DNA from: a virus
DNA: 14,157 nucleotides
Virus record (IMG/VR): IMGVR_UViG_3300050506_000139
Span: 1-14,157 of that record
Direction: 5' to 3' (one strand)
The notes beneath the pieces were generated by a model that was given only the letters and a program-made list of their open reading frames with translations, had not been told where the DNA came from and ran no database searches. The translations under genes were made by a program, and so were the position numbers. Position 1 is the first letter of the stretch. Every line of letters begins with the position of its first letter. This document shows, piece after piece, positions 1 through 14,036 of this stretch.

Positions 1-127
1 CCACATGCGAGAGCAAATGCGCCCGAAGAGCGGGGTCACGCGTCGTCCCCCGTCCTTTCGCGCGACAAGTAGGCATGCAGGTCTGCGCGTCGCCAACGGC
101 GGTGGCTGCCGAGCTTCGACGCCAAGC
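1..127. repeat. Terminal direct repeat, copy 1 (identical to 14031-14157)
   Basis: Base-by-base comparison shows ccacatgcgagagcaaatgc...gagcttcgacgccaagc at both window ends, 127/127 identical. Confidence 0.97.
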
Positions 128-317
128 TGGCAAGGCCAGCATCGCGGCGAACCCGGGCTTGGAATGCGAGGACATTGGGGCAGCCGACTTCCCGCGCGGC
201 GTCCGCGTCGGTCAGCAGCGCGGTGCGGCCGGACTCCTCGAGCATCATCCGAAACCGGTCGCTCAGGCGGTTCTCAAACGCGACCAGCTTGGCGTCGAAT
301 TCCTCCTCGGTGATCAT
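36..317 (-). CDS. Excisionase/AlpA-like HTH DNA-binding protein (MerR-superfamily HTH_17-like)
   Basis: The C-terminal LLTDADAAREVGCPNVL...GSHRRWRRADLHAYL fits the excisionase pattern (LT..EaA..lG...., G.r.rW...dl..wL). I prefer the ATG at 317 (MITEEEF), preceded by GGTGAAGG, which also holds the upstream stop. The track ORF extends to 362. Continues by wrap-around into the replication gene. Confidence 0.55.
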   Translation of the reverse strand: MITEEEFDAKLVAFENRLSDRFRMMLEESGRTALLTDADAAREVGCPNVLAFQARVRRDAGLASLASKLGSHRRWRRADLHAYLSRERTGDDA

Positions 318-325
318 GACGACCT

Positions 326-520
326 TCACCGCGGGAGCGCCTCTGGCACGGGCAAACCACACGTACCCAACACTTTCCGGATGCGCTCTGCCAGCAGTGG
401 GCGCACGGGCTGCCCAGACAGCATGCGCTTGACGGTGCGGGGATCCGCGACCGCCATTGCTGCGACCATTCTGATCTCGGTTTCGGTGAGCTCATTGTTC
501 CGCTCGCTCATGTTGTCCAA
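326..520 (-). CDS. Small HTH regulator (DPRTVKR motif)
   Basis: 64-aa ORF with VAAMAVADPRTVKRMLSGQPVRPLLAERIRKVL, an HTH-like helix-turn-recognition helix. TTG at 520, alternative ATG at 511. Tightly packed in the leftward operon. Confidence 0.5.
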   Translation of the reverse strand: MDNMSERNNELTETEIRMVAAMAVADPRTVKRMLSGQPVRPLLAERIRKVLGTCGLPVPEALPR

Positions 521-569
521 GATGAACGAGAGAGCGGGTCAAGTCACTGACACCCGAGCAGAAAATATG

Positions 570-1172
570 TCAGTCTCGGATTTCTCGGATTTCTTTTAGC
601 CAGGCGGCAATCAGATTCTCGGTCAATACCGGACGCGGTGTGATCTTCTTTCCGCCATCAAGCACCCTGCGCACAGTCCGCGGATCTATGCCGAGCTCAT
701 CAGCGATTATCTCAGATGCCTTCCCGAGCGTGAGCCCCTTGGTCTGTCGCGGTTCGTGGCCGGGAGGGTAGCACTTCGGTCGTCGAGGCCGGTTGTCTAC
801 GAGATCGTCGAGCCGGCTATATATGTGTTCCTGTCTTTTTGCGAGCTGCCATGCGTCGCCACGACCGGGCCACAGGCGTTTCCCCTCGGCTCTGACTTCA
901 TTCTCGAGCCGGCGAGTCTCGGACTTGTCCGCGTCCATTTCAAGAAGGTTCGCATCGAAGGCCTGGACCAGTTCCATCAAGCGAGTGGCTTCGTCCCGAA
1001 GAAAGTCACGACACTCTAGAAGCGATGGGAATCGGTTTTTACGTCTGGGCAACTGCTCCGCGTCCTTCCCGCATCGCTTAAGAGAAACCGGGCAGGGCGC
1101 CGAGGACGCGGCGACCGGCGCCCACACAGCGGGGATCAACCACTGCGTTGCCCGACATGGATACTCTACCAT
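570..1172 (-). CDS. Regulatory protein with coiled-coil middle and C-terminal HTH (DPRTVRR motif); start uncertain
   Basis: The C-terminus LGKASEIIADELGIDPRTVRRVLDGGKKITPRP repeats the motif of the next gene. ATG at 1172 has no clear RBS and internal ATGs (for example 977) are possible. First gene of the leftward operon, divergent from 1371 (+). Confidence 0.5.
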   Translation of the reverse strand: MVEYPCRATQWLIPAVWAPVAASSAPCPVSLKRCGKDAEQLPRRKNRFPSLLECRDFLRDEATRLMELVQAFDANLLEMDADKSETRRLENEVRAEGKRLWPGRGDAWQLAKRQEHIYSRLDDLVDNRPRRPKCYPPGHEPRQTKGLTLGKASEIIADELGIDPRTVRRVLDGGKKITPRPVLTENLIAAWLKEIREIRD

Positions 1173-1370
1173 GCAGCTCTGACACGACGTGTGCTAGCCT
1201 GACATCTGCGTTCGCAGAAAACTCCGCGCGGGATCGGCATTGCTGGGGTTTTTGCCCCCTGAACGAGTGCACCTGATTGCGATCCCAGCTGCACGTCGTC
1301 ATCATTCGGCCGGAACTACCCACGGGCCGAGTACATTGATCCATCGACCTAGCACATCTCTGGAGCATAG

Positions 1371-2153
1371 ATGAAGCGATTAACAACGATCCTTCTGTCC
1401 TCGCTCGCCGCTATTTCTACTACCATTGTCGGTCTCAGTCGCGTCGATATTCCAAGAGGATTCTGGGGCGAAAAGAGAGTTCTGATCATCTTAGCGATCG
1501 CGTATCTTGGTATCCACGCTTTCGCGCAGCCGATAGTAAAAGATGTCAAAGAACGCATGACGAGTCGAAGCGTGCGGCGGCGAGAGGACATCACTGAATT
1601 GCTTATTGGGGCGCTTAGCAACATCGCCGACCAAACGGGTCTCGATTGGAGGCAGCTTGGTGTCCACGTTTTTCTCGTCAAAACCAAATGGCGTTGGCCC
1701 TTCCGAAAAGCCTGGTGGCCGCTCCGCAATCCGCGGGAGCAGGTCCAATATCAGGTTTCTCGTTTTAAGATCGCGAGGCATCCGCCGTCATCGGGCATTC
1801 GATGGACAAAGGGCAAGGGCGCCATAGGAGACTGCTGGGAGAAGCAGGTGCCGATCTCAGCAAATCTATACCGGGACTTTGCGCCCTATGCGAAGTTAAC
1901 GGCACAAGAGTGGGACGGGTTGGATCGCGACGTTCGGTATGGGCTGAGCTTTGATGAGTTTCGCAGAGTGAAAGATTACGGAGGGGCAATCGTTGTTACA
2001 CCAATCAAAAAGGCGGACGACACGACCAAGTACATTGGGTGCGTGAGTGCGGATTCGCCCGGCGATTCCTTACAAAGACTCGATAACCCCAGCGTTTTTG
2101 AAGTCCTTCAGGGTGTGGCAAAAACCACCGCCACGCTCTTGTCACGGCGGTAG
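1371..2153 (+). CDS. Membrane protein with two N-terminal TM helices and a GAF-like C-terminal domain; candidate cargo
   Basis: ATG with GGAG 5 nt upstream. Two hydrophobic helices (ILLSSLAAISTTIVGL, VLIILAIAYLGIHAFA). The C-terminal pattern LGVHVFLV...RF...IRWTKGKGAIGDCW...GGAIVVTPI...YIGCVSADS resembles the GAF/GAF_2 core (G.G..G ... vPl ... iGvl..ds). Opposite strand to most genes and more A/T-rich by eye. Confidence 0.6.
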   Translation: MKRLTTILLSSLAAISTTIVGLSRVDIPRGFWGEKRVLIILAIAYLGIHAFAQPIVKDVKERMTSRSVRRREDITELLIGALSNIADQTGLDWRQLGVHVFLVKTKWRWPFRKAWWPLRNPREQVQYQVSRFKIARHPPSSGIRWTKGKGAIGDCWEKQVPISANLYRDFAPYAKLTAQEWDGLDRDVRYGLSFDEFRRVKDYGGAIVVTPIKKADDTTKYIGCVSADSPGDSLQRLDNPSVFEVLQGVAKTTATLLSRR

Positions 2154-2584: not shown

Positions 2585-3886
2585 TCAAACCTTACCTAAT
2601 CGTTCAGCTATCTGCAACGCGACGCCGGCGTCATCCGTGGCCGTGTCGGCTTCCATATGGTGTCTGGTATGGTCGTCGGCCATCTGCTGCCGTCGGGCCT
2701 GGTCCATGCTGGCGATGTCGGCGGGCAGCTTGGGCGCGAAGCTGAGGCGCGCCACCTGCGCCGAGAGGCGCGCGGGCATCGCATGCGCGTAGCGCTCGAC
2801 CTGGCTCATGGACTTCCACCGCCCCAGCTCCCTGAGCTCCACCGGATGCGTCCCCTCGGCTGCCAGGAGCGTTGCGAACGCATGGCGCAAAGCGTGGTTG
2901 TAGTGCTGCGGGACGTGAACGCCGGCCGCTACCAGCAGGTCCTTGACCTTCCGCATATCGTGCGGGTTGACCGCGCGGGCACCCTTCCCGCGCGCCCGCG
3001 GCATCGCGATAACCAACCCGTCTTTCGTCGCCGGGCACTTTTCTCGCCATTGCCGAAGCATCACCACCAGCTCCGGATTAGCCGGCACGGTCTTGACCTC
3101 CTCGTTCTTGGTGGTCGTCGCCCAGGACCGCGCCACGGTGATAAGGCCCCGCTCCAGGTCGCAATCGATCCAGCGTAGACCGCAAATCTCCCCGAGTCGC
3201 AGGCCCAAATACGCGCCGAGGGCAACGGCCGGCTTCAGATAACCGATGCCCATGGTCTCCGCGGTGGCTAGCATCTTCTCGAGCTCCCCGGCCGTGTAGT
3301 AGTCGGGCTTGCCGAGTTGGACCGATGGCCGCTCCACCTCGGCCGTGGGGTTCTCGCACGTGATGATGCCTTCCTTGCGAGCCCAGCGGTACATCCGGGA
3401 GATGACCTTCAAGACGTGAACCACGGTCTGCTTGGAACGCTTCGAAAGGATGTCATCGCGCAGCCGCTCCACATCCTTACGCGTGACATCGCTGGCGAGC
3501 TTCTGGCCGAGGGCCGGCAAGATGTAGTGCGTAAACTTGGAGCGCGCGAAGGCGCGGTATTTCTCCAGGTCTTTGATCCGTGGCCGAGAGTATTCGGCGA
3601 GAAAGCGATCGGCGACCTGATTCACGGTAAGCGCCACAGGCGCAGGCGCAGGCGGCTTCGGCTCTGGTAACCCTTTTCGAATGCGATCGGCTCGGGCCTC
3701 TGCCTCGCGTTCCAGCCGAGCGCCTCCATCCCGGGCTTGCGCCATGCTCTCGATCGCGTGCCCGTCGCCATCGGTGAGTAAAAGCTTGCTGTTTCGGCGC
3801 AGCTCGCCCTGCGCATCGACCTCGAGCAGCCCTTCAGCGTAGTAGCGCCAGCCCTTGCGTGTCTTCCGTCTGAATACGTAGGCCAT
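2585..3886 (-). CDS. int: Tyrosine recombinase / phage integrase
   Basis: Catalytic signature present: R in GLRLGEICGL, HALRHAF (H-x-x-R), GRWKS, and catalytic Tyr in VERYAH. N-terminal SAM-like core-binding region (VNQVADRFLAEY). ATG at 3886 is preceded by AAGGAGG. The track start at 3889 is a TTG one codon upstream. Confidence 0.92.
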   Translation of the reverse strand: MAYVFRRKTRKGWRYYAEGLLEVDAQGELRRNSKLLLTDGDGHAIESMAQARDGGARLEREAEARADRIRKGLPEPKPPAPAPVALTVNQVADRFLAEYSRPRIKDLEKYRAFARSKFTHYILPALGQKLASDVTRKDVERLRDDILSKRSKQTVVHVLKVISRMYRWARKEGIITCENPTAEVERPSVQLGKPDYYTAGELEKMLATAETMGIGYLKPAVALGAYLGLRLGEICGLRWIDCDLERGLITVARSWATTTKNEEVKTVPANPELVVMLRQWREKCPATKDGLVIAMPRARGKGARAVNPHDMRKVKDLLVAAGVHVPQHYNHALRHAFATLLAAEGTHPVELRELGRWKSMSQVERYAHAMPARLSAQVARLSFAPKLPADIASMDQARRQQMADDHTRHHMEADTATDDAGVALQIAERLGKV

Positions 3887-5262
3887 CAATCCTCCTTTTC
3901 TCGGCTACTCAACCCACTGCAGTTGAACCGAGGCGAATGCCTGCCTGAACGAACGCGCCGATGGTGTAGTCGTCGCATTGGAGAGTAAAATCGCCGGCGG
4001 ATCGGAATGTGAATCGTGGGGGTTTGGCTATGGCCGGGATGAGTCGCGGACGGAAGGCATTCAACGTTATCGGCGGCTTGGTGTTGATCGCGATGGCCGT
4101 GGCGGTCGTGGCGATCAGAGAGATGAAACAAGAGCCGGTACCGCGTCCCGCTTCTGTCACTCCGCCCCAAGCCGCTCCGTCCCTTTCCACGACAAATGCA
4201 CCAGGACAGCAGCCTCCCCCTTCTGATCCCAATGCTCCTATAGATACCAAAAACCTGGGCGCCTCGATCGCGCAAGAGTTGAAAAGCCTCAGCGCGACGT
4301 ATGCGAGCGAAGGCCCCCCCGGCAAGTACGCCGACCTGATTGATTCGGGGCTTTCGATCGATACAAGAGCAATTCTGGACGTGGCCGAGAAGGGCGCCGA
4401 GAACGCTCGGACGATTACATACTCCCATTTGAAGAAGGATGCGGACCGTTACGCCGGAAAGCCGTTTGTCTTTAGCGGACCGATCCTTGAAATACAAGAG
4501 GCGAAGGGGCAGCTCGTTGCTCGAATCAACCAAGGAAGCTATAGCGAACGCCCGATCTGGGTGGCAGCCACGTTTAACACCGAATTCATCGACGGGAAAT
4601 ATGTCGACGTGATTGGATACTTGGCAGGTTCTTACAGCTATACATCGCAAGCCGGTTGGAACATAACGATCCCTTCTGTCTTCGCTATAGCAATGACCAA
4701 AAACGGGAATCTCGCCAGGGCCCGAGCGCTCCGAAGCGGAAAGCGCTTGCGGCGCAGCGAAGACGAGGAGTGAAATCACGAAACAGTCCTCCTCTCTCGG
4801 CTCAGCAAACGCCATCTGTTCTGCATTCGAGGCGGCTTCCATGATTTCGTGGACCCGCGCCTGCGATGCCGCGAGGTCGCGTTCGAGGGTGTCTATGCGG
4901 GACCGGTCGGCCTGCGACGCGGCCAGCGCTTCGTGGCACATGTCTTTCAGTTCGGAGACCCGCGCCTTGGTGGTGTTAGCCGCGCGTGCATGGCCCCCTG
5001 CGACATCGACCAGCCGCGCATTCTCTCCCTCCAAGCGCTCGCGGTCCCGCTCCAGCTCGGCGACCCGCGCCGCTAATTGCTCGCATTCGGCTTCGGCGCT
5101 GTTCATTTCGCGTTCGAGCTGGTCACGCCACCGATCGCGTTCGGCGCGGGCCTCATCGCGCTCGCGTTCTAGCTCGGCGACCCGCGCGCGTAGGCGGTCG
5201 ATGATTTCCGCGTCAGCTTTCACGCCGGCAAGGTCGGAGATTCTTTCCTTGTGCCAGCTCAT
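3886..5262 (-). CDS. Coiled-coil protein; only the first 155 or so codons (5262 to about 4800) look coding, and the frame then stays open to 3886
   Basis: ATG at 5262 overlaps the upstream stop (ATGA). The N-terminus is heptad-like with an internal duplication (ARVAELERERDEA / ARVAELERDRERLE). Beyond about 4800 the translation is antisense to 4009-4773 and looks non-protein-like. The first in-frame stop is at 3886-3888, overlapping the int ATG (TGATG). Confidence 0.45.
   Translation of the reverse strand: MSWHKERISDLAGVKADAEIIDRLRARVAELERERDEARAERDRWRDQLEREMNSAEAECEQLAARVAELERDRERLEGENARLVDVAGGHARAANTTKARVSELKDMCHEALAASQADRSRIDTLERDLAASQARVHEIMEAASNAEQMAFAEPREEDCFVISLLVFAAPQALSASERSGPGEIPVFGHCYSEDRRDRYVPTGLRCIAVRTCQVSNHVDIFPVDEFGVKRGCHPDRAFAIASLVDSSNELPLRLLYFKDRSAKDKRLSGVTVRILLQMGVCNRPSVLGALLGHVQNCSCIDRKPRINQVGVLAGGAFARIRRAEAFQLLRDRGAQVFGIYRSIGIRRGRLLSWCICRGKGRSGLGRSDRSGTRYRLLFHLSDRHDRHGHRDQHQAADNVECLPSATHPGHSQTPTIHIPIRRRFYSPMRRLHHRRVRSGRHSPRFNCSGLSSREKED
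4009..4773 (+). CDS. Signal-anchored or secreted protein with Pro-rich linker and globular C-terminal domain; function unknown
   Basis: N-terminal basic stretch plus hydrophobic helix (RGRKAFNVIGGLVLIAMAVAVVAI), a P/S/T/Q-rich linker, then ordinary globular composition rich in K, I, Y, F and N. Start is GTG 4009, ATG 4030 or ATG 4039. The opposite-strand frame here is R/C/H/S-rich junk. Confidence 0.6.
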   Translation: MNRGGLAMAGMSRGRKAFNVIGGLVLIAMAVAVVAIREMKQEPVPRPASVTPPQAAPSLSTTNAPGQQPPPSDPNAPIDTKNLGASIAQELKSLSATYASEGPPGKYADLIDSGLSIDTRAILDVAEKGAENARTITYSHLKKDADRYAGKPFVFSGPILEIQEAKGQLVARINQGSYSERPIWVAATFNTEFIDGKYVDVIGYLAGSYSYTSQAGWNITIPSVFAIAMTKNGNLARARALRSGKRLRRSEDEE

Positions 5263-5594
5263 GCGGCCTCTTTTTCTTCATCTTCCGTGAGCCCCTGATT
5301 GAGCGCTGGGCCGTAGCTTGCCGCACATACCGAATCGATGCGCTCAGCAGCCTCACCAAGAATGAACTCAAGGGCTTCGATTTCGTCTAACCCAAGTGAG
5401 CTTCCACCGGACGACTCGATGGTGCGATAGACCAAGCGGAGATAGTGCGCGACGATAGCGGCATCCTCGTTGATCTTCTCGAACACCTTGCTCATCTGAA
5501 CCGGTTGCGTCCGTGCCTTGCTGCCAACGTTCCTCTTCGCCTTCATGTTCCCCCGTCCTTTCGTTGCGCCCTCGTTTTTCGGCGCCTCTGCCAC
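5259..5594 (-). CDS. Hypothetical protein (basic N-terminus, acidic C-terminus)
   Basis: 111-aa ORF. Start is GTG 5594 or ATG 5546 (MKAKRNV, preceded by AAGGACGGGGGA). Its stop overlaps the next gene's start (ATGA). Confidence 0.55.
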   Translation of the reverse strand: MAEAPKNEGATKGRGNMKAKRNVGSKARTQPVQMSKVFEKINEDAAIVAHYLRLVYRTIESSGGSSLGLDEIEALEFILGEAAERIDSVCAASYGPALNQGLTEDEEKEAA

Positions 5595-5621: not shown

Positions 5622-6020
5622 TTACAAACCAGCGTCACGCAGACGTGCATTGATCGCCGGGAGTGTCTGCCATGCCGGATCGCAGTGATCGCAATCGTCG
5701 CGCCCCAAGTGGCCGAGATGAGAGTGCATCAACTCGTGTGCATAGGCTGACGCGTCGAAGCTGCCCGGCCAAAAGAGCTCCACGCAATCGCAATGGCTGA
5801 AATAGAGCCCTTGGTACTGGTGGCCGTCCTTAGGGTCCGTGACAAGACCGGCGTCCCATTGCACCAACGGCGCGGGATCCGTTTCGTCCATCATCTGGTT
5901 CCATGTGATGGCCTCGGCCTCGCACTGCCTCGGCTGCCCATGTTCGCAATCGACCGGAGTTCCCGAGGGACCGTAATAGCACCCGCCGACGAACAGGAGA
6001 AGCATGAGCGCTCGCCGCAT
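5622..6020 (-). CDS. Cys-rich lipoprotein with HExxH motif (putative small zinc metallopeptidase-like)
   Basis: From the ATG at 6020 the protein begins MRRALMLLLFVGGC, a signal peptide plus lipobox-like VGGC. The mature part has 8 Cys and AYAHELMHSHLGH. The track ORF starts upstream at 6128. Confidence 0.6.
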   Translation of the reverse strand: MRRALMLLLFVGGCYYGPSGTPVDCEHGQPRQCEAEAITWNQMMDETDPAPLVQWDAGLVTDPKDGHQYQGLYFSHCDCVELFWPGSFDASAYAHELMHSHLGHLGRDDCDHCDPAWQTLPAINARLRDAGL

Positions 6021-6202
6021 CAGGCCACCAACCGCGCCAACGTGGAACAGCACCGAGTGCAGTTGCGCAACTCTGCCGCCGCTTCGCCATCGATTGCCTG
6101 CATCCCCACGTAAGGCAGTGCCTGCCATGCGACCTCATCGATCTTCAGCGCCTCATGCGTTTCACGCGAACACATCAGATACACCTCTCCCTTTGCGGCC
6201 AT
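6020..6202 (-). CDS. Small hypothetical protein
   Basis: 60-aa ORF with ATG at 6202. Its stop overlaps the lipoprotein ATG (TGATG). Weak RBS and no motif. Confidence 0.3.
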   Translation of the reverse strand: MAAKGEVYLMCSRETHEALKIDEVAWQALPYVGMQAIDGEAAAELRNCTRCCSTLARLVA

Positions 6203-6237: not shown

Positions 6238-6402
6238 CTACCGCTGGACTTTCTTACTTTCCTGATTGGCCAGCCAGTCGAGCAGCGCGACGCGCACGAT
6301 ATCCGCACGCGAAATCTTCAGGCCGGGGCGCTCCGCCGCCATGCGTTCGGCCGCCTTATCGAGCTTTGCGACGAGCCCCGTGTCGAGCCTAATGTGAAGC
6401 AT
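6238..6402 (-). CDS. Ribbon-helix-helix (CopG/Arc/MetJ-like) DNA-binding protein
   Basis: From the ATG at 6402 (GAGGAGGAAAAG upstream) the protein is MLHIRLDTGLVAKLDKAAERMAAERPGLKISRADIVRVALLDWL. This is a beta-strand followed by two helices, typical of RHH. The track ORF extends to 6462. Confidence 0.7.
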   Translation of the reverse strand: MLHIRLDTGLVAKLDKAAERMAAERPGLKISRADIVRVALLDWLANQESKKVQR

Positions 6403-6433
6403 CTTTTCCTCCTCGATAACCATGCGAGCGATT

Positions 6434-6575
6434 CGATACAAGAACGATACCAACACGTCCACTCTTGGGTGTACGCAGGGTTACGCGCGCGACCTGGGGC
6501 AATACCCGGGTATCGTTTGCAACACCTGTTGTATCGGTTGCCACACCGACTGTTACGGCCGATACACGGGTATCG
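6434..6575. promoter_or_regulatory. Operator or iteron array of CGATAC/GTATCG hexamers between the TerL stop and the RHH gene
   Basis: CGATAC at 6434 and 6445 (11-bp spacing). 16-bp palindromes CAATACccggGTATCG (6500-6515) and CGATACacggGTATCG (6560-6575). 18-bp direct repeats GTATCGtTTGCaACACC / GTATCGgTTGCcACACC at 6510 and 6531 (21-bp spacing). Confidence 0.55.
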
Positions 6576-6594
6576 TCTGACCCACCGGCCCGCA

Positions 6595-8022
6595 TCACAC
6601 CCGCTGCCGTATCACGCCGAATGGGCCGGCGCGCCGCATGATGGTTCTGTTCTGGAAGCGCTGTGGCGTAACGGGCTTATGTCGCACCGTCTCGACGAGG
6701 CAATAGCGAAGGCTATCCAAGGCGTGCGATGGGATCCGCTCGTCGATTTCTTCGCGATAGAGGCCCGTGCGCTTGTCGAAGAGCCACGAAGCAGCCTTGA
6801 TCTCGCGAATGAGATTCGTGCAGGCGTCGAGGATGCGCAGGCGCGGACCGTCGGGTCCCGGGTGCAGCCAGGTTTGGATATGCGTTAGGCCCGGCTTGAT
6901 CGACTTGTCGGTGCCGCGCGCATTCAGTCCACGTCGGCAAAATGCATCGATGACATCTGGCCGGGCGGAATCGACCACGACCGTGTTAGCCTGCCATCCA
7001 TTCGCCAGCTCGCGGATCACGGTCGCCCATGTTCGTCCGTGTTCATCGCCAAATGAATGTAGATGCGCCTCGTACACTTCTTCGGTGACGAGCAATTCAT
7101 CACCGAAATCGAGCAGAACGATCGCAGCGCCAGGCTGCGCATAGCCGACGTCGTGACCAATCGCAGCAGCCTTCGCCATGCTTCGGAGCGACCGGCCGCT
7201 CAGAGAGATTCCGTAACGAAGCTTCGCTTCCCTCTCTGTGATGACATGGATTTCGTCGTCAAACTCATCCAGAACGCGCGAACTCGACGGCGCTTCCCAG
7301 TTGGCGAGCCATAGCCGACGAAAGGACCGCTCGGGCAGTGTCTCCTGGGCGGCTTCGATCTCAGTCGTCTGGATGACGGGATTCGCACTCGTTGGCCAGC
7401 CGAATGAAGCGTAATCGGGATGGTACGAAGAATCATCCGGCATCCCGCGCCGCACCAGCTCGCTATAGGTCCAGTGCGTAGGATTGTCGGGCGTCGTAGT
7501 GAAGAGCGCGAAGCTATGCGGCGCCCAGTCGGCGAGCCTGGCGCGCAAAACTTCATTCCACAGTCCCGGCTCCGTGCCTGGTGTCGTCAACTCGTCGACG
7601 AACACTCCATGCAAGCGGAGACCGCGCAACCGTTCGCCGCCGTCTTCGCCCGAGCGAAACGAGACGAGCACATCGCCTTTGAGCCAAAGATCCTGCTCGT
7701 GACGGTTCCAGCTTTCGACGAGAGCATCTCCGGCCGCTTCGAAGGTTAGCCGCCGTGGCTCTGAGAGCATGCCGAACGTCGGCGTGCAAACGAGCAGATG
7801 AACCGCCGGCCTCCGATCCTTGCCGATGCCGGCCACCTGGTTGACGTGGCCCTGCGCGCGCAGTTCGTAGCCGCGCTGCAGAAGTGCCGTGACGGCTGCG
7901 CGCGTCTTGCCGCTTCGGTTGCCGGCCGAAGCCGTGACGAACCGCTTACGGCACTGCATGAATTCTGCCTGCGCAGGATGCGGTGTAAAATCATTGGCTG
8001 GTATTCGAATGCTGACTGTCAA
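6595..8022 (-). CDS. terL: Terminase large subunit
   Basis: Q-motif HPAQAEF, Walker A GNRSGKT, Walker B LHGVFVDE and coupling motif FTTTP. Nuclease-domain acidic motifs IGHDVGY, VVVDSARP and SHALDSLRYC. The Q-motif lies upstream of the first ATG, so the TTG at 8022 is the likely start; it overlaps the upstream stop as TTGA. Confidence 0.9.
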   Translation of the reverse strand: MTVSIRIPANDFTPHPAQAEFMQCRKRFVTASAGNRSGKTRAAVTALLQRGYELRAQGHVNQVAGIGKDRRPAVHLLVCTPTFGMLSEPRRLTFEAAGDALVESWNRHEQDLWLKGDVLVSFRSGEDGGERLRGLRLHGVFVDELTTPGTEPGLWNEVLRARLADWAPHSFALFTTTPDNPTHWTYSELVRRGMPDDSSYHPDYASFGWPTSANPVIQTTEIEAAQETLPERSFRRLWLANWEAPSSSRVLDEFDDEIHVITEREAKLRYGISLSGRSLRSMAKAAAIGHDVGYAQPGAAIVLLDFGDELLVTEEVYEAHLHSFGDEHGRTWATVIRELANGWQANTVVVDSARPDVIDAFCRRGLNARGTDKSIKPGLTHIQTWLHPGPDGPRLRILDACTNLIREIKAASWLFDKRTGLYREEIDERIPSHALDSLRYCLVETVRHKPVTPQRFQNRTIMRRAGPFGVIRQRV

Positions 8023-8222
8023 TGCAAATCAGGCTCCAGCGCGTGCTCCACGTCGTCGAGTAGCCGCACGCAGGTGCGCTGCATTTCCTTGACACAGCCC
8101 GCCAATGCAATGAGCGCTTGCCGATCGCGTTTCTCGAGCGCATCGAGAAACCGAGGGTTTCGTAGGCTCGCCACATGTCCTGCGGCCATCCTGGCGTAAT
8201 CGTGCAAATGCGATAAGAGCAT
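8019..8222 (-). CDS. Small helical hypothetical protein
   Basis: 67-aa ORF with ATG at 8222, 2 nt after the Gly-rich gene's stop. Its own stop overlaps the TerL start. Confidence 0.5.
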   Translation of the reverse strand: MLLSHLHDYARMAAGHVASLRNPRFLDALEKRDRQALIALAGCVKEMQRTCVRLLDDVEHALEPDLH

Positions 8223-8224: not shown

Positions 8225-9193
8225 CTAGCTTCCCAGCAATTGCACGATCGTGCCCGCAGACCCGGACGCTCCGTTGGTGCCGCCATTGGTTCCTGTGCCA
8301 CCCGCACCACCGCTAACGGTTGGGGCCGTACCGATCGCCGAGCTCATGGTTGTGAGCAAGATTCCACCACCACCGCCACCACCACCGCCACCGCTGCTGC
8401 TATTGCTGCCCGTGCCAGCGCCATTACCGCCGGCACCGCCGTTTGCGGTGATAGAACCGGAATTCGAAATCTGTACTGCAGCGATGACTATGATGCCACC
8501 GCCTGCCCCGCCTCCGCCACCTTCACCACCGGTACCACCCCCGAAAACAGCTCCGCCACCCCCACCGCCAGATCCGCCCTTTAGACTTACCAATGCAGAT
8601 GCGCCAACGATAGCGCCCAGCGTTGCCATTGGATTCGCTCGGTATCCTCCGGCGCTGGCAGAAGGGGCAGTTGCCGCTCCGCCTGCACCTCCGGTATCTG
8701 GTGCACCGATTGCGGAGTCGCCTCCGTTCCCACCAACGCCACCGATCTGATTAGATCCCCCGGCGCCGCCGGACGCTCCGGCTCCGGTTCCATTTGATCC
8801 CGCACCGCCTGCCGATCCTGAAAGTAACGACCCAGCCGCACCCGCAGTGCCACCAGCGCCGCCGTTGGATCCTGCTACTGCGTTGGCCCCGGCATTACCT
8901 GCAACTGAGATGATCCCACCAGATGCAATCGAGAGTAGTTGGGATACGTAGATGCGGAAACCGGCCGGCTTTAGTACACCTGTGCTACTGATTGTAAGAT
9001 TGCGGTAATACATATCCCGCGTGAGGGTCGTCGTTCCACCGGTGATAGTGACGTCGCCGTCGCTGCCATCACCAAATATGCCGCTTCCGCCGATCAAGCC
9101 GTTAATATCGTCTTGAACGGTTTGTCCCCATGTTGGCGTGAAAACAGTTCCGTTAAGCCAGGTAGCGGGCGAAGTAATCTTTCCGATCGCCAT
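8225..9193 (-). CDS. Glycine-rich beta-helix-like protein, putative fibre / receptor-binding protein
   Basis: The N-terminus reads FGDGSDGDVTITGGTTTLTRDMYYRNLTISSTGVLKPAGFRIYV. It is followed by long G/A/S/N/T repeats (GGAGG, GNGG) and a run of 10 Gly. This resembles phage fibre-like glycine-rich proteins from memory. The plus-strand Pro-rich ORF 8250-8750 is its mirror. Confidence 0.6.
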   Translation of the reverse strand: MAIGKITSPATWLNGTVFTPTWGQTVQDDINGLIGGSGIFGDGSDGDVTITGGTTTLTRDMYYRNLTISSTGVLKPAGFRIYVSQLLSIASGGIISVAGNAGANAVAGSNGGAGGTAGAAGSLLSGSAGGAGSNGTGAGASGGAGGSNQIGGVGGNGGDSAIGAPDTGGAGGAATAPSASAGGYRANPMATLGAIVGASALVSLKGGSGGGGGGAVFGGGTGGEGGGGGAGGGIIVIAAVQISNSGSITANGGAGGNGAGTGSNSSSGGGGGGGGGGILLTTMSSAIGTAPTVSGGAGGTGTNGGTNGASGSAGTIVQLLGS

Positions 9194-9195: not shown

Positions 9196-9384
9196 TTAAA
9201 TGCTCTCCAAATCCGCTAGCGTCGCGCGCATGCTCTCGATGTCGTGAATCAACGCTTCAAGCGCCGAGTCAACTTCGCCGATCAGCGGGCGCGGATCGCT
9301 CTGCAAGATACAATCAAGCTCCGCCAGACGATCAGCCGCCTGGCGGAGATGTGCTACCAGCGTGCGCGTGATGCTGACGCTCAA
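9196..9384 (-). CDS. Small helical hypothetical protein
   Basis: 62-aa ORF. TTG start overlaps the upstream stop (TTGA), and it ends 2 nt before the Gly-rich gene's ATG. Confidence 0.45.
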   Translation of the reverse strand: MSVSITRTLVAHLRQAADRLAELDCILQSDPRPLIGEVDSALEALIHDIESMRATLADLESI

Positions 9385-9614
9385 TCGCGGTTCCTCGGCG
9401 GCAAATCGGCGTTCGCGTCTTTAATCATCTGTTCTTGCTCGGCCTGTCCCGTCCTGCGCCCACCGCCGGCAGGCGTACGAAATGCATCATTGCCCAGGTT
9501 TCCGGCGCGCCGCTCCTTGCGCATACCGCCCACTAGGCCAGTATCGCTCTGTTCGCCGGTCGCCTTTTCGTCGCGGGCCTTTTGACTCTGTGAATGAAAG
9601 TTGCTTTTACCCAT
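9381..9614 (-). CDS. Small basic, probably disordered protein
   Basis: 77-aa ORF with ATG at 9614 preceded by GAGGAA. Rich in K, R, G, Q and E with no hydrophobic core. Confidence 0.5.
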   Translation of the reverse strand: MGKSNFHSQSQKARDEKATGEQSDTGLVGGMRKERRAGNLGNDAFRTPAGGGRRTGQAEQEQMIKDANADLPPRNRD

Positions 9615-9626: not shown

Positions 9627-10115
9627 TCATTCCGTGATAGTTGATTCCGCGAGCCGCTGAATTGCTGCTCGCCAATTCGGTCCACGTTGATTGTTGATGA
9701 GCTCTCGCAAGCGCTCAAATACGGTCGCGAGCGGGTTGCCCTCTTGTTTCAGCTCGTGAGCCAGGAGCAGGATGGCGCGTCCGACATCGGAGTCGAGGCT
9801 CACGTCGGCGATGAACCGTTGCTGATTCTCGTGACGCTGTTGGGCGCGTTCGGTTCCGAGCGCCATTTCGGAAAGCATCGCGGCTTCTTGATGTCGCTCC
9901 TCGAGCGAAGCGAGATCCTTCTTTCGCTGTAGCTGCTCGAGCGTGGCGCGCTCTGCGTCGGTGAATATGGTAGCCGCCGTCGGTTCGTCGTCTGGCAAAC
10001 GACGTGTCTCTAGCGGCTCCGCGGTTCGAGAGGCGCGTTCCTCGGCAAGTGCAGCATTGACGTCGATCGGCCGGTTCTCTTCTGGAAACCAGCTGCTCTG
10101 GTACGGGAACGCCAT
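9627..10115 (-). CDS. Hypothetical protein (acidic, helical)
   Basis: 162-aa ORF. Its ATG is immediately adjacent to the upstream stop (TAAATG). Protein-like composition. Confidence 0.6.
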   Translation of the reverse strand: MAFPYQSSWFPEENRPIDVNAALAEERASRTAEPLETRRLPDDEPTAATIFTDAERATLEQLQRKKDLASLEERHQEAAMLSEMALGTERAQQRHENQQRFIADVSLDSDVGRAILLLAHELKQEGNPLATVFERLRELINNQRGPNWRAAIQRLAESTITE

Positions 10116-10421
10116 TTACTTGCTCGCCTTCTTCGCGGCTTCGCGCTCAGCGTATTCCGCCTCGGTCAACAGGCTCGGGCAGGCGTTGCGCACCGACCAG
10201 GGCGAGATACCGGTGCCGAGTTCGGCATCGAAGGGAATCTCGACCCATTCATTCTTGGCGACCGACTTTTTGACGCCTTCGAAGTTCAGGATGCAAGTGC
10301 CGGGCGGATAGCCACGGGGTAAAAGCTCGCGGGTCTGTTCGACGATCTTGCGCACTTTCTTGACGTCATCGTAAAAATAGTCGGCCCAAAGATACATTCC
10401 GCTGTTGAAATACTTCGGCAT
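10116..10421 (-). CDS. Hypothetical protein
   Basis: 101-aa ORF with ATG at 10421 preceded by ACGGAGGAAAAATAAC. Aromatic-rich, globular-looking sequence. Confidence 0.65.
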   Translation of the reverse strand: MPKYFNSGMYLWADYFYDDVKKVRKIVEQTRELLPRGYPPGTCILNFEGVKKSVAKNEWVEIPFDAELGTGISPWSVRNACPSLLTEAEYAEREAAKKASK

Positions 10422-10460
10422 GTTATTTTTCCTCCGTGTTAAGTGGTGTTCGGTTACGAG

Positions 10461-10766
10461 TCATTTGCTCTTCCTTCTGTCGCGAATCTCCCGGATCACG
10501 TCGCCAACCATTTCGGCCAGCCGCTCATGGGCCGTACCCTTTCGATCGAGCGCAGCACCTGCAATCGCGTCCAATCGATTGGCCGGCTGGCGTTCGGCCG
10601 GCGCAGGTTCGGCCGGTGCATTTTTCTTGGCCTCGAGCTCGGCGCGTTGGGCGGGCGAAAGCTGCGCCTTGAGCAATTCGGCTTTCAAGCGGGCTGCCTT
10701 GGCCGAGTGTTCTTCGGCGGCAATTTCCGCCTCTTGCAGGCGTCGGAAAACGTTATCGTCACTCAC
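10461..10766 (-). CDS. Coiled-coil hypothetical protein; first gene after the leader and terminator
   Basis: I prefer the in-frame GTG at 10766 (GAGGA 7 nt upstream). The track's TTG start at 10796 lies inside the U-tract of the upstream hairpin. Ala/Glu/Lys-rich helical sequence. Confidence 0.55.
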   Translation of the reverse strand: MSDDNVFRRLQEAEIAAEEHSAKAARLKAELLKAQLSPAQRAELEAKKNAPAEPAPAERQPANRLDAIAGAALDRKGTAHERLAEMVGDVIREIRDRRKSK

Positions 10767-10794
10767 GCGCACATCCTCGCTTTCGGTTGGTTGC

Positions 10795-10838
10795 AAAAAA
10801 ACGCTCTGCTAGTCCGCATTCTGTCGAGTGGGCAGAGC
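10795..10838 (-). terminator. Hairpin plus U7 tract (intrinsic-terminator-like) on the minus strand
   Basis: The minus strand reads GCTCTGC-(22 nt)-GCAGAGC-G-TTTTTTT. The loop is large, so this is tentative. It is preceded by a 9-bp-stem hairpin at 10843-10871 (ACACCGCAA/TTGCGGTGT). Confidence 0.4.
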
Positions 10839-11189
10839 AGCCACACCGCAAAGGAGGCGCCGTTGCGGTGTCGGCGCCGGGCCGCGGACCTTGGCCCTGA
10901 CAAATGAAAGAAATGCCCGCTGCCCATGTCTCTGCGGTCGGCGGGCGCAACCGGGCCGGGTCGGCACATGGGCGGCCGATGAATCATGGTCGGCTTCTCC
11001 ACCGGCCGCGAGTGCGTGTGAGGATATCGACCGACCGGGGCTTCCCGAGGTCACGCCACCGTCCACCTAGAAAGGCAATTTTAAGGTCGGCTTTGGCGTC
11101 TGACCCGCCGGGGCGGGCAGAACCACGGGAGACGGAATTGCACCCTCTAGATTCCGCGATCTGCTCGTGCAAAACGCATTTCTCAGCGG

Positions 11190-11660
11190 TCATATTTGGG
11201 CCTGCCTATGGCGTCGAAGTCCTGCCAGGCGCGCTGCCTTCTGTTCAGGAGTAAGCCGGTCCCAGTTGCGGGCTGGCTTCGGCGCGGGAGCGCTAGACGC
11301 TGCCGCCGTGGTGCCGCCTTTCCGTGTGACCTCGAGCTCTGCGCCCTCGCAGGCGCGGCACAGAATCACGTAACGCCATTCCTGCACGCCTTCGGGCAGG
11401 TGGTACAGAACGGCCGGCGCGCATGAATCGCGGCCGATGCCAAACCGGCTCGAGCAATGGAAGCATCGATCGGCTTGGTCATGGAGCTGTGCGAGTAGCG
11501 GCTTGTAGGTGTGGTCCGCGTTGCAGTAGCCACGGCTCTCGAGCGCAAGCAGCTCCCGCTTCCAGGGATTGACGCAGCATTGCGTGAAGCCGTCGATTAG
11601 AAAGGCTCTGTGCCCGCATTCGGGACAATTGGCATGTTTCAGCGGTTCGGTCTGTCTCAC
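11190..11660 (-). CDS. Cys-rich zinc-finger protein (possible degenerate HNH-like or Q-like regulator)
   Basis: CPECGH, CFHC and LCRAC pairs are present. YHLPEG....LCRAC loosely resembles an HNH beta-beta-alpha-metal core. I prefer the GTG at 11660 (AGGGAG 8 nt upstream), overlapping the upstream stop as GTGA. The track ORF extends to 11816 in a frame overlapping the previous gene. Confidence 0.5.
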   Translation of the reverse strand: MRQTEPLKHANCPECGHRAFLIDGFTQCCVNPWKRELLALESRGYCNADHTYKPLLAQLHDQADRCFHCSSRFGIGRDSCAPAVLYHLPEGVQEWRYVILCRACEGAELEVTRKGGTTAAASSAPAPKPARNWDRLTPEQKAARLAGLRRHRQAQI

Positions 11661-11839
11661 CTCGAAGGCTCCCTCTCGGGCCATAGCTGAAACGGGACGG
11701 CCAGCGGCGGTCGCGAGGGCTCCTTCGCGGCCTGTGATGCGGCATGCTGCTCTTGGCACTCCGCCGAGCAGTACACGTGAAGGCCACCGGGGATGGTGCC
11801 GCCGCACCAGATGCACTGTGTCTCTTTGTCGTCGCTCAC
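11657..11839 (-). CDS. Small zinc-ribbon protein (zf-FCS/TRASH-like CxxC-x12-CxxxC)
   Basis: GTG at 11839 is preceded by GAGGAGGAACCGAA and overlaps the upstream stop (GTGA). Motif CIWCGGTIPGGLHVYCSAEC. Confidence 0.55.
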   Translation of the reverse strand: MSDDKETQCIWCGGTIPGGLHVYCSAECQEQHAASQAAKEPSRPPLAVPFQLWPEREPSR

Positions 11840-12441
11840 TTCGGTTCCTCCTCGTGTTCGGGTAATGCGTACATTTTCAGCCCCAGCTCGGGCCGCTCGG
11901 TCACCACGGCCAACCGCAGCGAACCATCGGACGCCTCGAGGTAGACGCGGCCATCGCTGCCCTGCCAGCCCTCGAGCGCCGCACCGGTTGCGCCACGCAG
12001 CGAGACCCGCTGCATGCCGCCACTCGAGACCTGCGCGATTTGGATCAACGTGGGCTGTGGCGTGCTTGCCGCGGCTGCTTCGGCATTCATACGCCTTTCG
12101 CGTACCTTGCTGCGGCTATCGAGAAGGTGAGCCACGCGGGCAGAGATGTAATCCAGTCCCTTGCGCACGTTCTCGTCGCCCAGCGGATCGGGGTGGTCGC
12201 GCATTACACGCTGCGCTTTGGCGATCTCAAGCGCCGCCTGGCTAGTCAAAACGTTCTCGTCGCCGTAGTTAAGCCGTAGCAGCCTGTTATTACCCGTATA
12301 ATTACCAAGGTCTTCGCCGCGTAACTGCTTCGAATACAGGCCAGTCTTGAGAGCGTTCAAATTGCCGCGAGGAGCGCCACCGCGGCCTCGTCGTTTGGGG
12401 GGCTGGCGTCGCGTTGTTTTTGGCGTTTCACCGGCACTCAT
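11836..12441 (-). CDS. Basic N-terminus protein with GAPRGNLNALKTGLYS motif; possible small-terminase-like DNA-binding protein
   Basis: 201-aa ORF with ATG at 12441 and GCGAGG upstream. From memory, the motif G-A-P-x-G-N-x-N-A-x-K-x-G-x-Y-S occurs in YjcR-type and small-terminase-like phage proteins. Not verified. Confidence 0.6.
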   Translation of the reverse strand: MSAGETPKTTRRQPPKRRGRGGAPRGNLNALKTGLYSKQLRGEDLGNYTGNNRLLRLNYGDENVLTSQAALEIAKAQRVMRDHPDPLGDENVRKGLDYISARVAHLLDSRSKVRERRMNAEAAAASTPQPTLIQIAQVSSGGMQRVSLRGATGAALEGWQGSDGRVYLEASDGSLRLAVVTERPELGLKMYALPEHEEEPK

Positions 12442-12526
12442 GCTGCCTCGCTGTTTGCATTCCCGTCCATACCGGCGTCCATACAGAACCCGTTAACCAT
12501 GCGAACTCTTTGGAATAGCACAGGCC

Positions 12527-12556
12527 TATATAGCCTCTGTGCAATCGCGCTGCTAA
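12527..12556 (-). promoter_or_regulatory. Candidate sigma70-like promoter (TTAGCA-18 nt-TATATA) upstream of 12441
   Basis: The minus strand reads TTAGCA (12556-12551), an 18-nt spacer, then TATATA (12532-12527). It sits in the most A/T-rich stretch of the 12442-12634 intergenic region. Confidence 0.3.
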
Positions 12557-12605
12557 TAATTGCGCATAGTTGCGTTTGTTTGGCGCTACTTTCGATGGCG
12601 CGCGT

Positions 12606-12629
12606 GAGGCAGGCGACGAGGCAGGCGAC
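12606..12629. repeat. Tandem 12-mer x2 (GAGGCAGGCGAC)
   Basis: Read directly from the sequence: 12606-12617 equals 12618-12629. Located 5 nt from the DnaC-like stop codon. Confidence 0.9.
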
Positions 12630-12634
12630 AACCA

Positions 12635-13423
12635 TCATCGCCCACCACCACGCAGGCTATTGCCGCTGACCACGTAGAACCGACCGCCATCTTTGAGCCG
12701 ATCCAGAATCCGCACGCCATAGCGGGTTTTGAACTCGGTCAACGTGCAGTTGGTCGTCAAGATCGTCTTGCGGCCGTCGGCGTAACGGGCATTGACCACA
12801 CCATCGAGCAGCGAGGAGAACGCGCCACCGCGGTCGTTGAACTCGGTCCCAACGTCATCGACGATGAGTAGGCTACAGCGCTCAATCTTGGCCATGGCTT
12901 CATCATCGAAACGGGGATAGCGAGCCAGCTGGGGCGCAGTGAGGAACACCACGACCGACGATGCTTTCGCAAAGACGTTGCTCTGTTTCAGGGACTCAAG
13001 TGCGCGTTGGCGAAGAAGCTGATAAACAGCGGTCGCGCATGCGCTGGTCTTGGCCAAGCCTTTGTTGCCAGCGAGAACCAAAAGCCAATCAGAGCCAGCG
13101 ATGAAGTCACGCGCTACCCGATGTGCTTCGGCGTCGCATTTACCGCCAAGGACCTGATCGACAAATCGGCGAGGCAGATCGCTGGATTTAAACCGGAGCT
13201 CGGCCCGTTCCAACGCATCACGCCGGTCTTCTTCTTCGCAAAGCCGCTTCTGCTGCGCCTGATAGCGTTCGAGCTGGGCTGCGAAGTCGGGATCGGCTTC
13301 TATTCGGGTAAGAATGTCCTTGTAGGTTAGACCAACGCTGGGGTCAGCCAATGTGGTCGTGACAGTGTCGCTAAGATTAGTCATCGATTGCCTGTTCCCC
13401 TGCGGGTCCGTAATCACGGTCAT
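12635..13423 (-). CDS. DnaC/IstB-like AAA+ ATPase (helicase-loader-like) with atypical Walker A
   Basis: Walker A-like GNKGLAKT has Ala where the GKT glycine is expected. Walker B LLIVDDVG, sensor-1 TILTTN and RILDRL are present. Alternative ATG at 13384 would overlap the upstream stop by 8 nt instead of 47. Confidence 0.8.
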   Translation of the reverse strand: MTVITDPQGNRQSMTNLSDTVTTTLADPSVGLTYKDILTRIEADPDFAAQLERYQAQQKRLCEEEDRRDALERAELRFKSSDLPRRFVDQVLGGKCDAEAHRVARDFIAGSDWLLVLAGNKGLAKTSACATAVYQLLRQRALESLKQSNVFAKASSVVVFLTAPQLARYPRFDDEAMAKIERCSLLIVDDVGTEFNDRGGAFSSLLDGVVNARYADGRKTILTTNCTLTEFKTRYGVRILDRLKDGGRFYVVSGNSLRGGGR

Positions 13424-14036
13424 CGGTGAGTTTCAGGGCGCCAACGCCGGATCCATTCGTACTCTTGATCTTGTTAGTGCTCGTGCTCGTGATCGTGCTC
13501 GTGATCGTGGCGCTACTTGAAGCCGTTTTGGCAACGGTGGTTGGCAACGACGGTTGGCAATCAGGGTTGGCAACCCGCTTGGCGTCCGCGATGGCGTCCG
13601 CGAAGATCTCATGGAAGATTGCCCGCAGGTCGCGATGCGCACCTCTGGTCAGTTTCTTGGCCTTGAACGTTGCCATGAACTTGTCTGCGGCTAGCAGGGC
13701 TTCGCTGCGGAGACGACAATCCGGCAGCTCGTCGTAGACCTCGCGCCAGAGCTGAATTGTCTTCGGGCTGGTAGGTGCGTTGTCCGCCATCGCCTCCGGT
13801 AGCCACACCAGCGGCGCGGACCAGTCCGCCTTGACGAATCCCGCGCGCTCCAGCTCACCGAAGCATTGCAAAAACGCGCCGAGGTCCCATGCAAGCGATT
13901 CCGCCAAACCGGCGCGGCCAGCGGAGAACAATCCAGGCAGCGCTCGGCGATGAGGACCGGTCAGCAAGTACAAATGAAGCAGCCGTGCATTGGGCGCGGG
14001 CGCCGGGAGGGACCGAAAACGCCGGTCCTGCCACAT
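13377..14036 (-). CDS. Replication-organiser-like (winged-helix) protein with S/T-rich linker; start uncertain
   Basis: From the ATG at 14036 the protein begins MWQDRRFRSLPAPAPNARLLHLYLLTGPHR...PGLF. This resembles the N-terminal pattern of phage replication-organiser / DnaD-like proteins, and it sits directly upstream of the DnaC-like gene. The track start (TTG 14126) would overlap the wrapped Xis-like gene. Confidence 0.45.
   Translation of the reverse strand: MWQDRRFRSLPAPAPNARLLHLYLLTGPHRRALPGLFSAGRAGLAESLAWDLGAFLQCFGELERAGFVKADWSAPLVWLPEAMADNAPTSPKTIQLWREVYDELPDCRLRSEALLAADKFMATFKAKKLTRGAHRDLRAIFHEIFADAIADAKRVANPDCQPSLPTTVAKTASSSATITSTITSTSTNKIKSTNGSGVGALKLTDDRDYGPAGEQAIDD

Follow-up and report, generated by a model that had tools for sequence, protein, structure and literature searches.

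The 14,157-nt stretch of DNA examined here at its full length (the window; IMG/VR record IMGVR_UViG_3300050506_000139) is an integrative element of 14.0 kb and phage origin, in its excised or replicating state. Its genes specify an integrase, helix-turn-helix (HTH) regulators, DnaD-like and DnaC-like replication proteins with iterons, a TerS-like protein, the large terminase subunit (TerL) and a glycine-rich β-solenoid protein, and nearly all of them are on the minus strand in one long direction of transcription; features below lie on that strand unless the plus strand is named. A terminase is thus present in an element whose open reading frames (ORFs) include no recognisable capsid or portal gene. 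The element is small and mobile, with integration and replication functions of its own on a 14.03-kb circle, which is what is generically expected of a satellite. On balance we favour the view that it is a helper-dependent phage satellite of a lineage that has not yet been described.

A closed circle recovered from soil metagenomes

Positions 1–127 of the window are 100% identical to positions 14031–14157 in a self-repeat comparison, and this 127-nt terminal overlap marks a closed unit of 14,030 bp, either a circle or a concatemer. The element comes from soil metagenomes, and the source samples comprise JGI 3300006914, ENA ERZ27257998 and ERZ27257952, SRR5689908 and SRR29757248. The same TerL protein is recorded on four contigs of 10–20 kb from JGI, ENA and Logan sources, and the whole circle was compared for two of these, L001 and L002. 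L002 (JGI 3300006914, 14,130 bp) is 100% identical to the window and L001 (ENA ERZ27257998, 14,228 bp) is 99.3–99.9% identical; both are collinear with it over the entire circle, break at other points and span the junction of the window.

The two ends of L001 (1–210 and 14019–14228) overlap imperfectly, with 90% identity over 210 nt. All 20 differences are confined to the final ~130 nt of the integrase gene; the attP cores do not differ. The overlap is imperfect because the ends carry two alleles of the integrase 3′ end, which by their sequence appear to coexist in one sample; this suggests a natural, slightly polymorphic population. The preliminary description had left room for a chimeric or collapsed assembly, and the metagenomic origin of the contig and its k-mer-sized terminal overlap would fit such an artefact. 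The circle is nevertheless reproduced in JGI and ENA assemblies (the protein also in Logan) with different breaks and at 99.3–100% identity over its full length. Given these permuted, collinear contigs and the polymorphism of L001, a chimeric or collapsed assembly is very unlikely, and we treat its probability as practically negligible.

Terminase genes

TerL (6595–8022) is read as a protein of 475 aa whose TTG start codon overlaps the stop codon of the preceding 67-aa gene. It matches phrog_2 (E value 1.2e-30) and, barely above the cutoff of 22 bits, Pfam Terminase_6N (22.1 bits). Since homology to its relatives begins at residue 4–5 of this reading, the automatic call of 454 aa is too short. 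The Walker A (GNRSGKT, G34–T40) and Walker B (VDE, D143–E144) motifs and the nuclease aspartates D291, D351 and D436 show no variation when TerL is aligned with its relatives, and the protein is accordingly predicted to be a terminase of the Terminase_6 or T4-like type, with an N-terminal ATPase and a C-terminal RNase-H-like nuclease whose motifs are intact. TerL is at most 25% identical to the TerL of any cultured phage; a comparison with PDB sequences returned no match, and one with plasmids returned distant prophage-type matches only.

A TerS-like protein of 201 aa is encoded at 11836–12441, where the preliminary description had suspected a TerS. Its N-terminal GAPRGNLNALKTGLYS motif weakly matches two independent TerS models, phrog_1889 (E 0.008) and NF040601 (E 0.0012). 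Of its homologues in the two relatives introduced below, that in L026 matches a third TerS model, phrog_9231, with an E value of 1.6e-4, and that in L003 is encoded just upstream of TerL. An AlphaFold2 model built from a two-sequence alignment has the usual layout of TerS, its disordered N-terminal part being followed by a long helical hairpin and then by a β domain at the C-terminus, but the mean pLDDT is only 65.6. A fold search with this model gave generic helical hairpins only and was discarded as uninformative. The earlier suspicion is therefore upheld by weak matches to TerS models and by synteny in the relatives, and the gene is probably a TerS.

Search for head and tail genes

Even with permissive thresholds, searches of Pfam, PHROGs and NCBIfam matched no ORF of the window to a family of capsid, portal, protease, scaffold, tube, sheath or lysis proteins, in agreement with the preliminary description, which had seen no head or tail genes. 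When the 17 weakly assigned or unassigned ORFs were concatenated and compared by tblastn with 50,697 phage genomes, matches arose only through two plus-strand cargo genes. The earlier statement that all remaining ORFs are of 201 aa or shorter was inexact, as there are also ORFs of 260 aa (1371–2153, plus strand), 254 aa (4009–4773, plus strand), 208 aa (11190–11816) and 458 aa (3886–5262); none of these looks like a head protein, and no portal-sized ORF is left unassigned in the window. Of the genes of a complete temperate phage of the Caudoviricetes, this closed 14-kb circle has only the terminase and one fibre-like gene.

Relatives of the terminase

Relatives of TerL were sought by a word-indexed search of 5.8 billion proteins and by an exhaustive HMMER search over 1.84 billion representatives. 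The first returned the protein's own cluster, one protein with 44% identity (P0002) and a remainder with no more than 29%; the second found no further relative above 36% identity. P0002 is encoded on contig L003, where an AAA_25 helicase gene, small ORFs, the TerS-like gene, a 53-aa ORF, TerL and six small ORFs follow one another, with no portal gene in the 1.8 kb downstream of TerL. A third member was found through the TerS-like protein on L026, a contig of 15,147 bp (k141_2575775, ENA ERZ27257952) that also occurs in SRR5689908 as L027. Its TerL is 51% and its TerS-like protein 39% identical to those of the window. The gene order around its TerL is syntenic with the window: a homologue of the 62-aa protein lies upstream, and homologues of the 60-aa protein (6020–6202), the N-terminus of the lipoprotein, the 111-aa protein of 5259–5594 and the N-terminus of the coiled-coil protein lie downstream, followed by integrase and attP. 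For replication L026 has a Prim-Pol rather than DnaD and DnaC. No head gene was detectable in 13.9 of its 15.1 kb, and no protein of more than 250 aa besides TerL and integrase is conserved between it and the window.

The TerLs of the window, L003 and L026 are 37–51% identical to one another, and all three elements keep the TerS-like gene and TerL, with intact catalytic residues and without an adjacent portal gene. The examined TerL relatives at 29–36% identity are ordinary phages: TerL is followed by SPP1_portal and cement genes for P0003 (29% identical to the window), by large structural genes for P0140 (34%), and by a 603-aa portal-sized gene and MuF for P0139 (36%). The TerL clade at or above 44% identity comprises small elements only, with TerS and TerL intact and no portal beside TerL, and this clade-wide pattern speaks for a stable way of life and against recent decay. 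Scans of genome and viral contigs with the single TerL sequence returned nothing; alignment-based scans of genome, viral and metagenome contigs reached only distant phage TerLs of at most 29% identity, and a megablast of the whole circle against phages gave no match.

The glycine-rich fibre-like protein

The glycine-rich β-solenoid protein (8225–9193), with 943 homologues, is a candidate tail fibre or receptor-binding protein. Five phage contigs carrying a homologue (L010–L014) were looked at. Each of the five has it at the end of a myophage baseplate module, behind Dit_like, Pam3_gp18, Sheath_initiator and Phage_Wedge1-like genes. Four of them have it directly upstream of TerL, after which comes the portal gene (of the Phage_portal_3 type in L011, L012 and L014, an unannotated ORF of portal size in L013); Mu_F is present in two of them. 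In L011–L014, which are Pam3-like or MuF-type myophages, the tail module precedes the head module, and the glycine-rich gene is often translationally coupled to TerL through overlapping stop and start codons, with no recognisable TerS between them.

An AlphaFold2 model from a 61-sequence alignment (pLDDT 88, pTM 0.85) consists of a short N-terminal helix followed by a β-solenoid, and it matches viral glycine-rich domains in BFVD (E 1e-20 to 1e-14, TM 0.6–0.73). A weak match to gp38 in the fold search of the PDB, with a probability of 0.03, was rejected. No match to phages was reported by tblastn with this protein, probably owing to the low-complexity filter. Gene position and viral distribution, and not a match to a solved structure, make it a candidate fibre-like protein. 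The idea that the gene upstream of TerL substitutes for TerS was also rejected, in view of the β-solenoid fold, the position at the end of baseplate modules and the separate TerS-like gene.

In the window, a 67-aa ORF (8019–8222) for which no homologue was found sits tightly between the fibre-like gene and TerL. In L026 the fibre-like genes come after the TerS-like gene: two proteins of ~250 aa share the N-terminal ~37 residues of the window's protein, one of them having a weak ConA-lectin-like domain, and a third fibre-like ORF of more than 430 aa is rich in T, S, G and N. Because these genes do not adjoin TerL, the adjacency of fibre-like gene and TerL in the window is not a shared relic; it looks like the outcome of modular exchange with phages.

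Integration and replication modules

The tyrosine integrase is encoded at 2585–3889 (Pfam Phage_integrase 3.7e-19, Phage_int_M 6.7e-8, phrog_1 1e-54); a search with it against phages gave no clue to the host. Starting 7 nt past its stop codon, 41 nt (2537–2577) equal, when read directly, the 5′ half of tRNA-Arg(UCU), acceptor stem to anticodon loop (CUUCUAA) inclusive. The preliminary description had placed integration at tRNA-Arg(UCU). This 5′ half is indeed present, although ARAGORN found no whole tRNA in the window, and it is a plausible attP core, with integration predicted at the anticodon loop. In L026 the attP (6765–6810), likewise beside the integrase gene, is the reverse complement of the 3′ half of tRNA-Lys(UUU), so that related elements use different tRNA targets and orientations. 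The identity blocks of both attP sites stop at the anticodon loop. Integrative elements more often carry the 3′ part of a tRNA gene, and a 5′ half on the integrase strand is unusual. The first base of contig L027 lies only a few bases away from the edge of this tRNA block, which is just what a branch of the assembly graph between integrated and excised forms would give.

A DnaD-like replication organiser (13377–14126; phrog_1701, 8.7e-11) and a DnaC-like helicase loader (12635–13423; phrog_50, 1.3e-27; IstB_IS21 below cutoff) adjoin each other. Repeat analysis revealed TTGGCAAC iterons at 13528–13574, inside the DnaD-like gene, which are likely the replication origin. By its sequence the element has a theta-type replication module of its own, made up of a DnaD-like initiator with internal iterons and a DnaC-like loader. 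The last regulatory gene ahead of the replication genes encodes an HTH_17-like (Xis/AlpA-like) DNA-binding protein (36–362; Pfam HTH_17, E 0.0011, sub-threshold), and its positional counterpart in L026 has a PF12728 HTH_17 domain. The inventory of the preliminary description (integrase, Xis-like protein, HTH regulators, replication organiser, DnaC-like loader, TerL and glycine-rich protein) thus holds, the Xis-like assignment resting on this sub-threshold match.

A conserved non-coding element

An ORF-poor gap of ~390 nt, upstream of the tight operon that runs toward the fibre-like gene and TerL, contains a conserved non-coding element followed by a hairpin and a T-run (10806–10900). It is identical to L026 (~441–535) at 57 of 60 nt, whereas the proteins of the two elements are only 39–51% identical. 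The hairpin stems differ (GCTCTGC/GCAGAGC in the window, GGGTCC/GGACCC in L026) yet both pair, and the 22-nt loop is conserved. Rfam gave no match on the window at E values up to 1, the fold z-scores of the element are unremarkable, and a scan for sigma-70 promoters and terminators did no better than on shuffled sequences. The element could be a leader or attenuator RNA, a helper-responsive late promoter region, or a pac or cos site. A helper sharing the pac or cos site was sought by two exact-word searches of IMG/VR: one gave 0 matches, and the other gave 7, none of which extends beyond 17–18 nt, so that they are taken as chance matches.

Proposed life cycle and alternative explanations

A more specific proposal, to which we give slightly less than an even chance, is that the three diverged members form a satellite lineage that takes procapsids and tails from a helper myophage and brings its own TerS–TerL and exchangeable receptor-binding proteins. 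Such a satellite would itself choose the DNA to be packaged and the cell to be infected and take all else from the helper, which would put it, in evolution and in function, between PICIs and cfPICIs. In the life cycle envisaged for the favoured satellite reading, the element, once induced by a helper myophage or co-infecting with one, would excise and replicate. Its own TerS–TerL holoenzyme would then recognise a site on its own DNA, for which 10806–10900 is a candidate, and dock on the helper portal, so that satellite DNA would fill helper procapsids. Helper tails would be attached, and the fibre-like protein of the satellite may enter the baseplate and thereby alter the host range. By analogy, the helper is probably a temperate myophage with a MuF-type head module, because it is in such phages that homologues of the fibre-like protein and the closest phage TerL occur. 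With 14.0 kb for the circle and 15.1 kb for the L026 contig, each has about one third of the length of the 40–48-kb contigs with a fibre homologue, a ratio that would fit small capsids or the packaging of a three-unit concatemer.

Several observations weigh against a helper-dependent satellite. Neither the integrated copies nor the helper envisaged in the preliminary description, nor any virion-derived record, were found in scans of genomes, IMG/VR and JGI metagenomes. The TerL of the window has no detectable similarity to the TerLs of the phages with fibre homologues, and compatibility with the portal of such a helper is therefore unproven. The lack of head genes is negative evidence from profile hidden Markov models (HMMs), with two ORFs, the glycine-rich and the TerS-like, folded; L026 was read over 13.9 of 15.1 kb and L003 is a fragment, so that head genes elsewhere in both are possible. 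Support for TerS is weak (E values of 1e-4 to 1e-2, a pLDDT of 65.6 and no fold match), and the fibre role is assigned by position, as the fold search of the glycine-rich model against the PDB gave no significant match. The distinct hijacking strategy put forward in the preliminary description has thus gained two diverged relatives with the same module set, and none of the described families compared below matches it, but it still lacks a helper.

That no helper was found is also the best support for a different origin, namely a prophage reduced to a defective state, or a plasmid-like descendant of a temperate myophage, that lost its head and tail modules, still excises and replicates, and retains TerL and the fibre-like gene as leftovers of an ancestral fibre–TerL junction. 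The block of glycine-rich gene, 67-aa ORF and TerL mirrors the adjacency seen in four of the five phage contigs, as would be expected after a double deletion, one on either side of this junction. In L026, however, the fibre-like genes are not beside TerL, which speaks against an ancestral remnant. Three elements with TerLs only 37–51% identical that all keep an intact TerS-like gene and TerL indicate long-term selection instead of recent decay; moreover, every ORF in the tight operon is intact, and several samples contain this circle, with microdiversity. We therefore regard decay as unlikely, though it is the strongest of the competitors. More improbable still is an integrative replicon that moves little or without virions (by vesicles, transformation or a gene-transfer agent) and employs its terminase in concatemer resolution or, as a defence, in packaging interference. 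In favour of this, the membrane and lipoprotein cargo (1371–2153, 4009–4773, 5622–6128) is typical of exclusion or defence, and satellites and prophages are known to carry defence genes (PMC10085698). Such a replicon would leave unexplained why TerL retains its ATPase and nuclease motifs, why it is paired with a TerS-like gene in three of three members, which is the signature of a packaging holoenzyme, and what a fibre-like protein would do outside a virion.

It could also be argued that the element is a complete, very small virus whose structural proteins are novel or divergent beyond recognition, since about half of its ORFs are orphans without a homologue outside the family. Motors of the TerL type work on a dodecameric portal, and the conservation of capsid and portal proteins is normally similar to that of TerL. 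Yet the window has no ORF longer than 322 aa besides TerL, the integrase and the 458-aa ORF, which is for the most part implausible; the longest of the others are the glycine-rich protein, two cargo genes on the opposite strand and the replication and TerS-like proteins, and no protein above 250 aa except TerL and integrase is common to the window and L026. A self-sufficient small virus is accordingly highly improbable in our view, and a helper-dependent satellite remains the reading that we prefer.

Other regulators, small proteins and cargo genes

Two Cys-rich or zinc-ribbon ORFs directly follow the TerS-like gene. One encodes a treble-clef zinc-ribbon protein of 60 aa (11657–11839; DUF2116, E 0.0011, and weak zinc-ribbon matches) that is similar to a portion of a protein annotated as HNH in phage contig L010. 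The other encodes a Cys-rich protein of 156 aa (11190–11660; the 208-aa ORF is its reading to 11816) with CxxC...YH...CxxC spacing. No HNH model matched the ORFs of 11190–11839; by analogy with cos phages and cfPICIs they may represent an HNH packaging accessory that has degenerated.

A putative regulator (570–1172) is the first gene in the long transcription unit of the minus strand and has an HTH near its C-terminus (a weak phrog_1157 HTH stretch at residues 150–181, and weak HTH_23 and HTH_29 matches). It is followed by a putative small regulator of 64 aa (326–520), an ORF without a family match that is called in both L001 and L002. Immediately downstream of TerL lies the gene for a ribbon-helix-helix (CopG-like) protein (6238–6462; Pfam RHH_1 with E 0.001 and 19.4 bits, the cutoff being 20.5). 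The gap between this gene and the 3′ end of TerL contains, at 6497–6586, two 30-nt direct repeats 60 nt apart (GGGCAATACCCGGGTATCGTTTGCAACACC and a 77% identical copy), which may be an operator for the ribbon-helix-helix protein.

Several small proteins are conserved in the family. The 60-aa protein at 6020–6202 is the best conserved of them, being 58% identical to a 51-aa gene at the same position in L026, and the protein at 5259–5594 is 36% identical to a 96-aa gene, again at the same position. Upstream of the fibre-like gene, two small overlapping ORFs of 62 and 77 aa (9196–9614) are both conserved in L026 just upstream of its TerL block: the 62-aa protein is 38% identical to a 74-aa gene, and the C-terminus of the 77-aa protein matches an 88-aa gene. 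Three tightly packed ORFs of 162, 101 and 111 aa (9627–10796) encode helical, charged proteins that fall short of the size of an HK97-fold capsid protein or a portal and gave no match in Pfam, PHROGs, NCBIfam or a tblastn against phages.

A putative lipoprotein (5622–6128) has a signal peptide and the lipobox LFVGGC if started at M37, and its N-terminal part is conserved in a 165-aa gene of L026. It contains several cysteines and a HELMHSHLGH motif reminiscent of zinc metallopeptidases. No HMM family in Pfam, PHROGs or NCBIfam matched it; it might have a role in exclusion, lysis or interference. The first ~150 aa of the 458-aa ORF (3886–5262) form a coiled coil encoded by 105/117-nt DNA repeats, and its first 23 aa are 70% identical to an 86-aa gene that precedes the integrase gene in L026. 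The remainder is antisense to the 254-aa plus-strand gene and not protein-like, and the C-terminal 300 aa are probably meaningless read-through. The 254-aa gene (4009–4773, plus strand; phrog_26645, 3.3e-14) encodes a membrane-anchored protein with a tblastn match to a hypothetical protein of Listeria phage LWP01. It is absent from L026 and looks like cargo inserted between the coiled-coil gene and the integrase gene. The second cargo gene, of 260 aa (1371–2153, plus strand), encodes N-terminal hydrophobic or transmembrane segments and has no HMM match; its sole relative in phage genomes, 25% identical, is on the unannotated gut phage contig MT835568. It is placed between the regulatory region and attP, a position where satellites often carry defence genes.

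Comparison with known satellites

The element would work like a satellite, yet its gene set departs from that of each named family, and the best reading places its lineage between PICI and cfPICI. With classical PICIs and SaPIs it shares its size, about one third of a typical helper genome, the layout of integrase, regulator, replication and packaging genes, a TerS-like gene for redirecting packaging and cargo near the ends. It differs from them in having its own TerL and a fibre-like protein, in replicating with DnaD/DnaC-type proteins (Prim-Pol in L026) and not with Pri-Rep, and in the lack of any recognisable capsid-size remodelling (cpm-like) gene in the window. Set against the classical PICI rule of integrase, AlpA/Stl/MerR, Pri-Rep and TerS or capsid morphogenesis, the window has the integrase, a sub-threshold HTH_17 and a weak TerS-like gene.

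P4-like elements resemble the window in integrating at tRNA genes and in being circular replicons. Their late genes are switched on via helper-responsive regulatory sites. P4 has no terminase genes and uses the P2 terminase on a shared cos site, unlike the window, which has its own TerL and in which none of Sid, Psu, Delta, Epsilon and the alpha primase was matched. P4-like satellites depend on a helper myophage for heads and tails; for the present element we infer such a dependence. The temperate MuF-type myophages (L011–L014 and the phage of P0139) have in common with it relatives of the fibre-like protein, the nearest phage TerL and the adjacency of fibre-like gene and TerL. They are, however, 40–48 kb long and carry a full baseplate, sheath and tube, portal, MuF and capsid genes, none of which was detected in the window.

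As in cfPICIs, the window shows an integrative satellite of ~10–15 kb with integrase, AlpA-type regulator and its own replication genes. cfPICIs also have both TerS and TerL, which is unusual for satellites, often together with an HNH protein (PMC10085698; PMC10690885); here TerL is clear, TerS probable, and in place of HNH there are only zinc-ribbon matches. The family is defined by its major capsid protein, portal, protease and head–tail adaptor or connector (PMC10085698; PMC10690885), for none of which the window has a match. Whereas cfPICIs steal tails only, this element would need procapsids too, and it has a fibre-like gene, which cfPICIs have not been described to carry. The Streptomyces satellites MulchRoom and MiniFlayer likewise have TerS and TerL; MiniFlayer encodes a tail fibre and MulchRoom a tyrosine integrase, and both have portal, major capsid protein, scaffold and adaptor genes and no replication genes (PMC10690885). 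This arrangement is reversed in the window, where replication genes are present and head genes were not detected, and there is no sequence relationship. VEIME elements have TerS and HNH, with TerL not mentioned, PICI-like tycheposons TerS or a major capsid protein, and EPIPs TerS, adaptor, major capsid protein and tape-measure protein (PMC12822802). Among classical PICIs, cfPICIs, MulchRoom and MiniFlayer, VEIMEs, tycheposons and EPIPs, none has TerS, TerL and a fibre without portal and capsid.

The satellite families compared here either redirect packaging by the helper TerL (through cos mimicry, a satellite TerS or Rpp) or bring a whole head module together with TerL. If the proposed cycle is true, a satellite TerL acting on the helper portal would be a third solution to packaging and would provide a test case for the compatibility of TerL and portal. 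Receptor-binding proteins placed on stolen tails would likewise uncouple the host range of the satellite from that of its helper, which bears on gene flow in soil. The family escapes current satellite finders, as its TerL breaks the PICI rule and its missing capsid breaks the cfPICI rule; the diversity of satellites is therefore probably under-counted.

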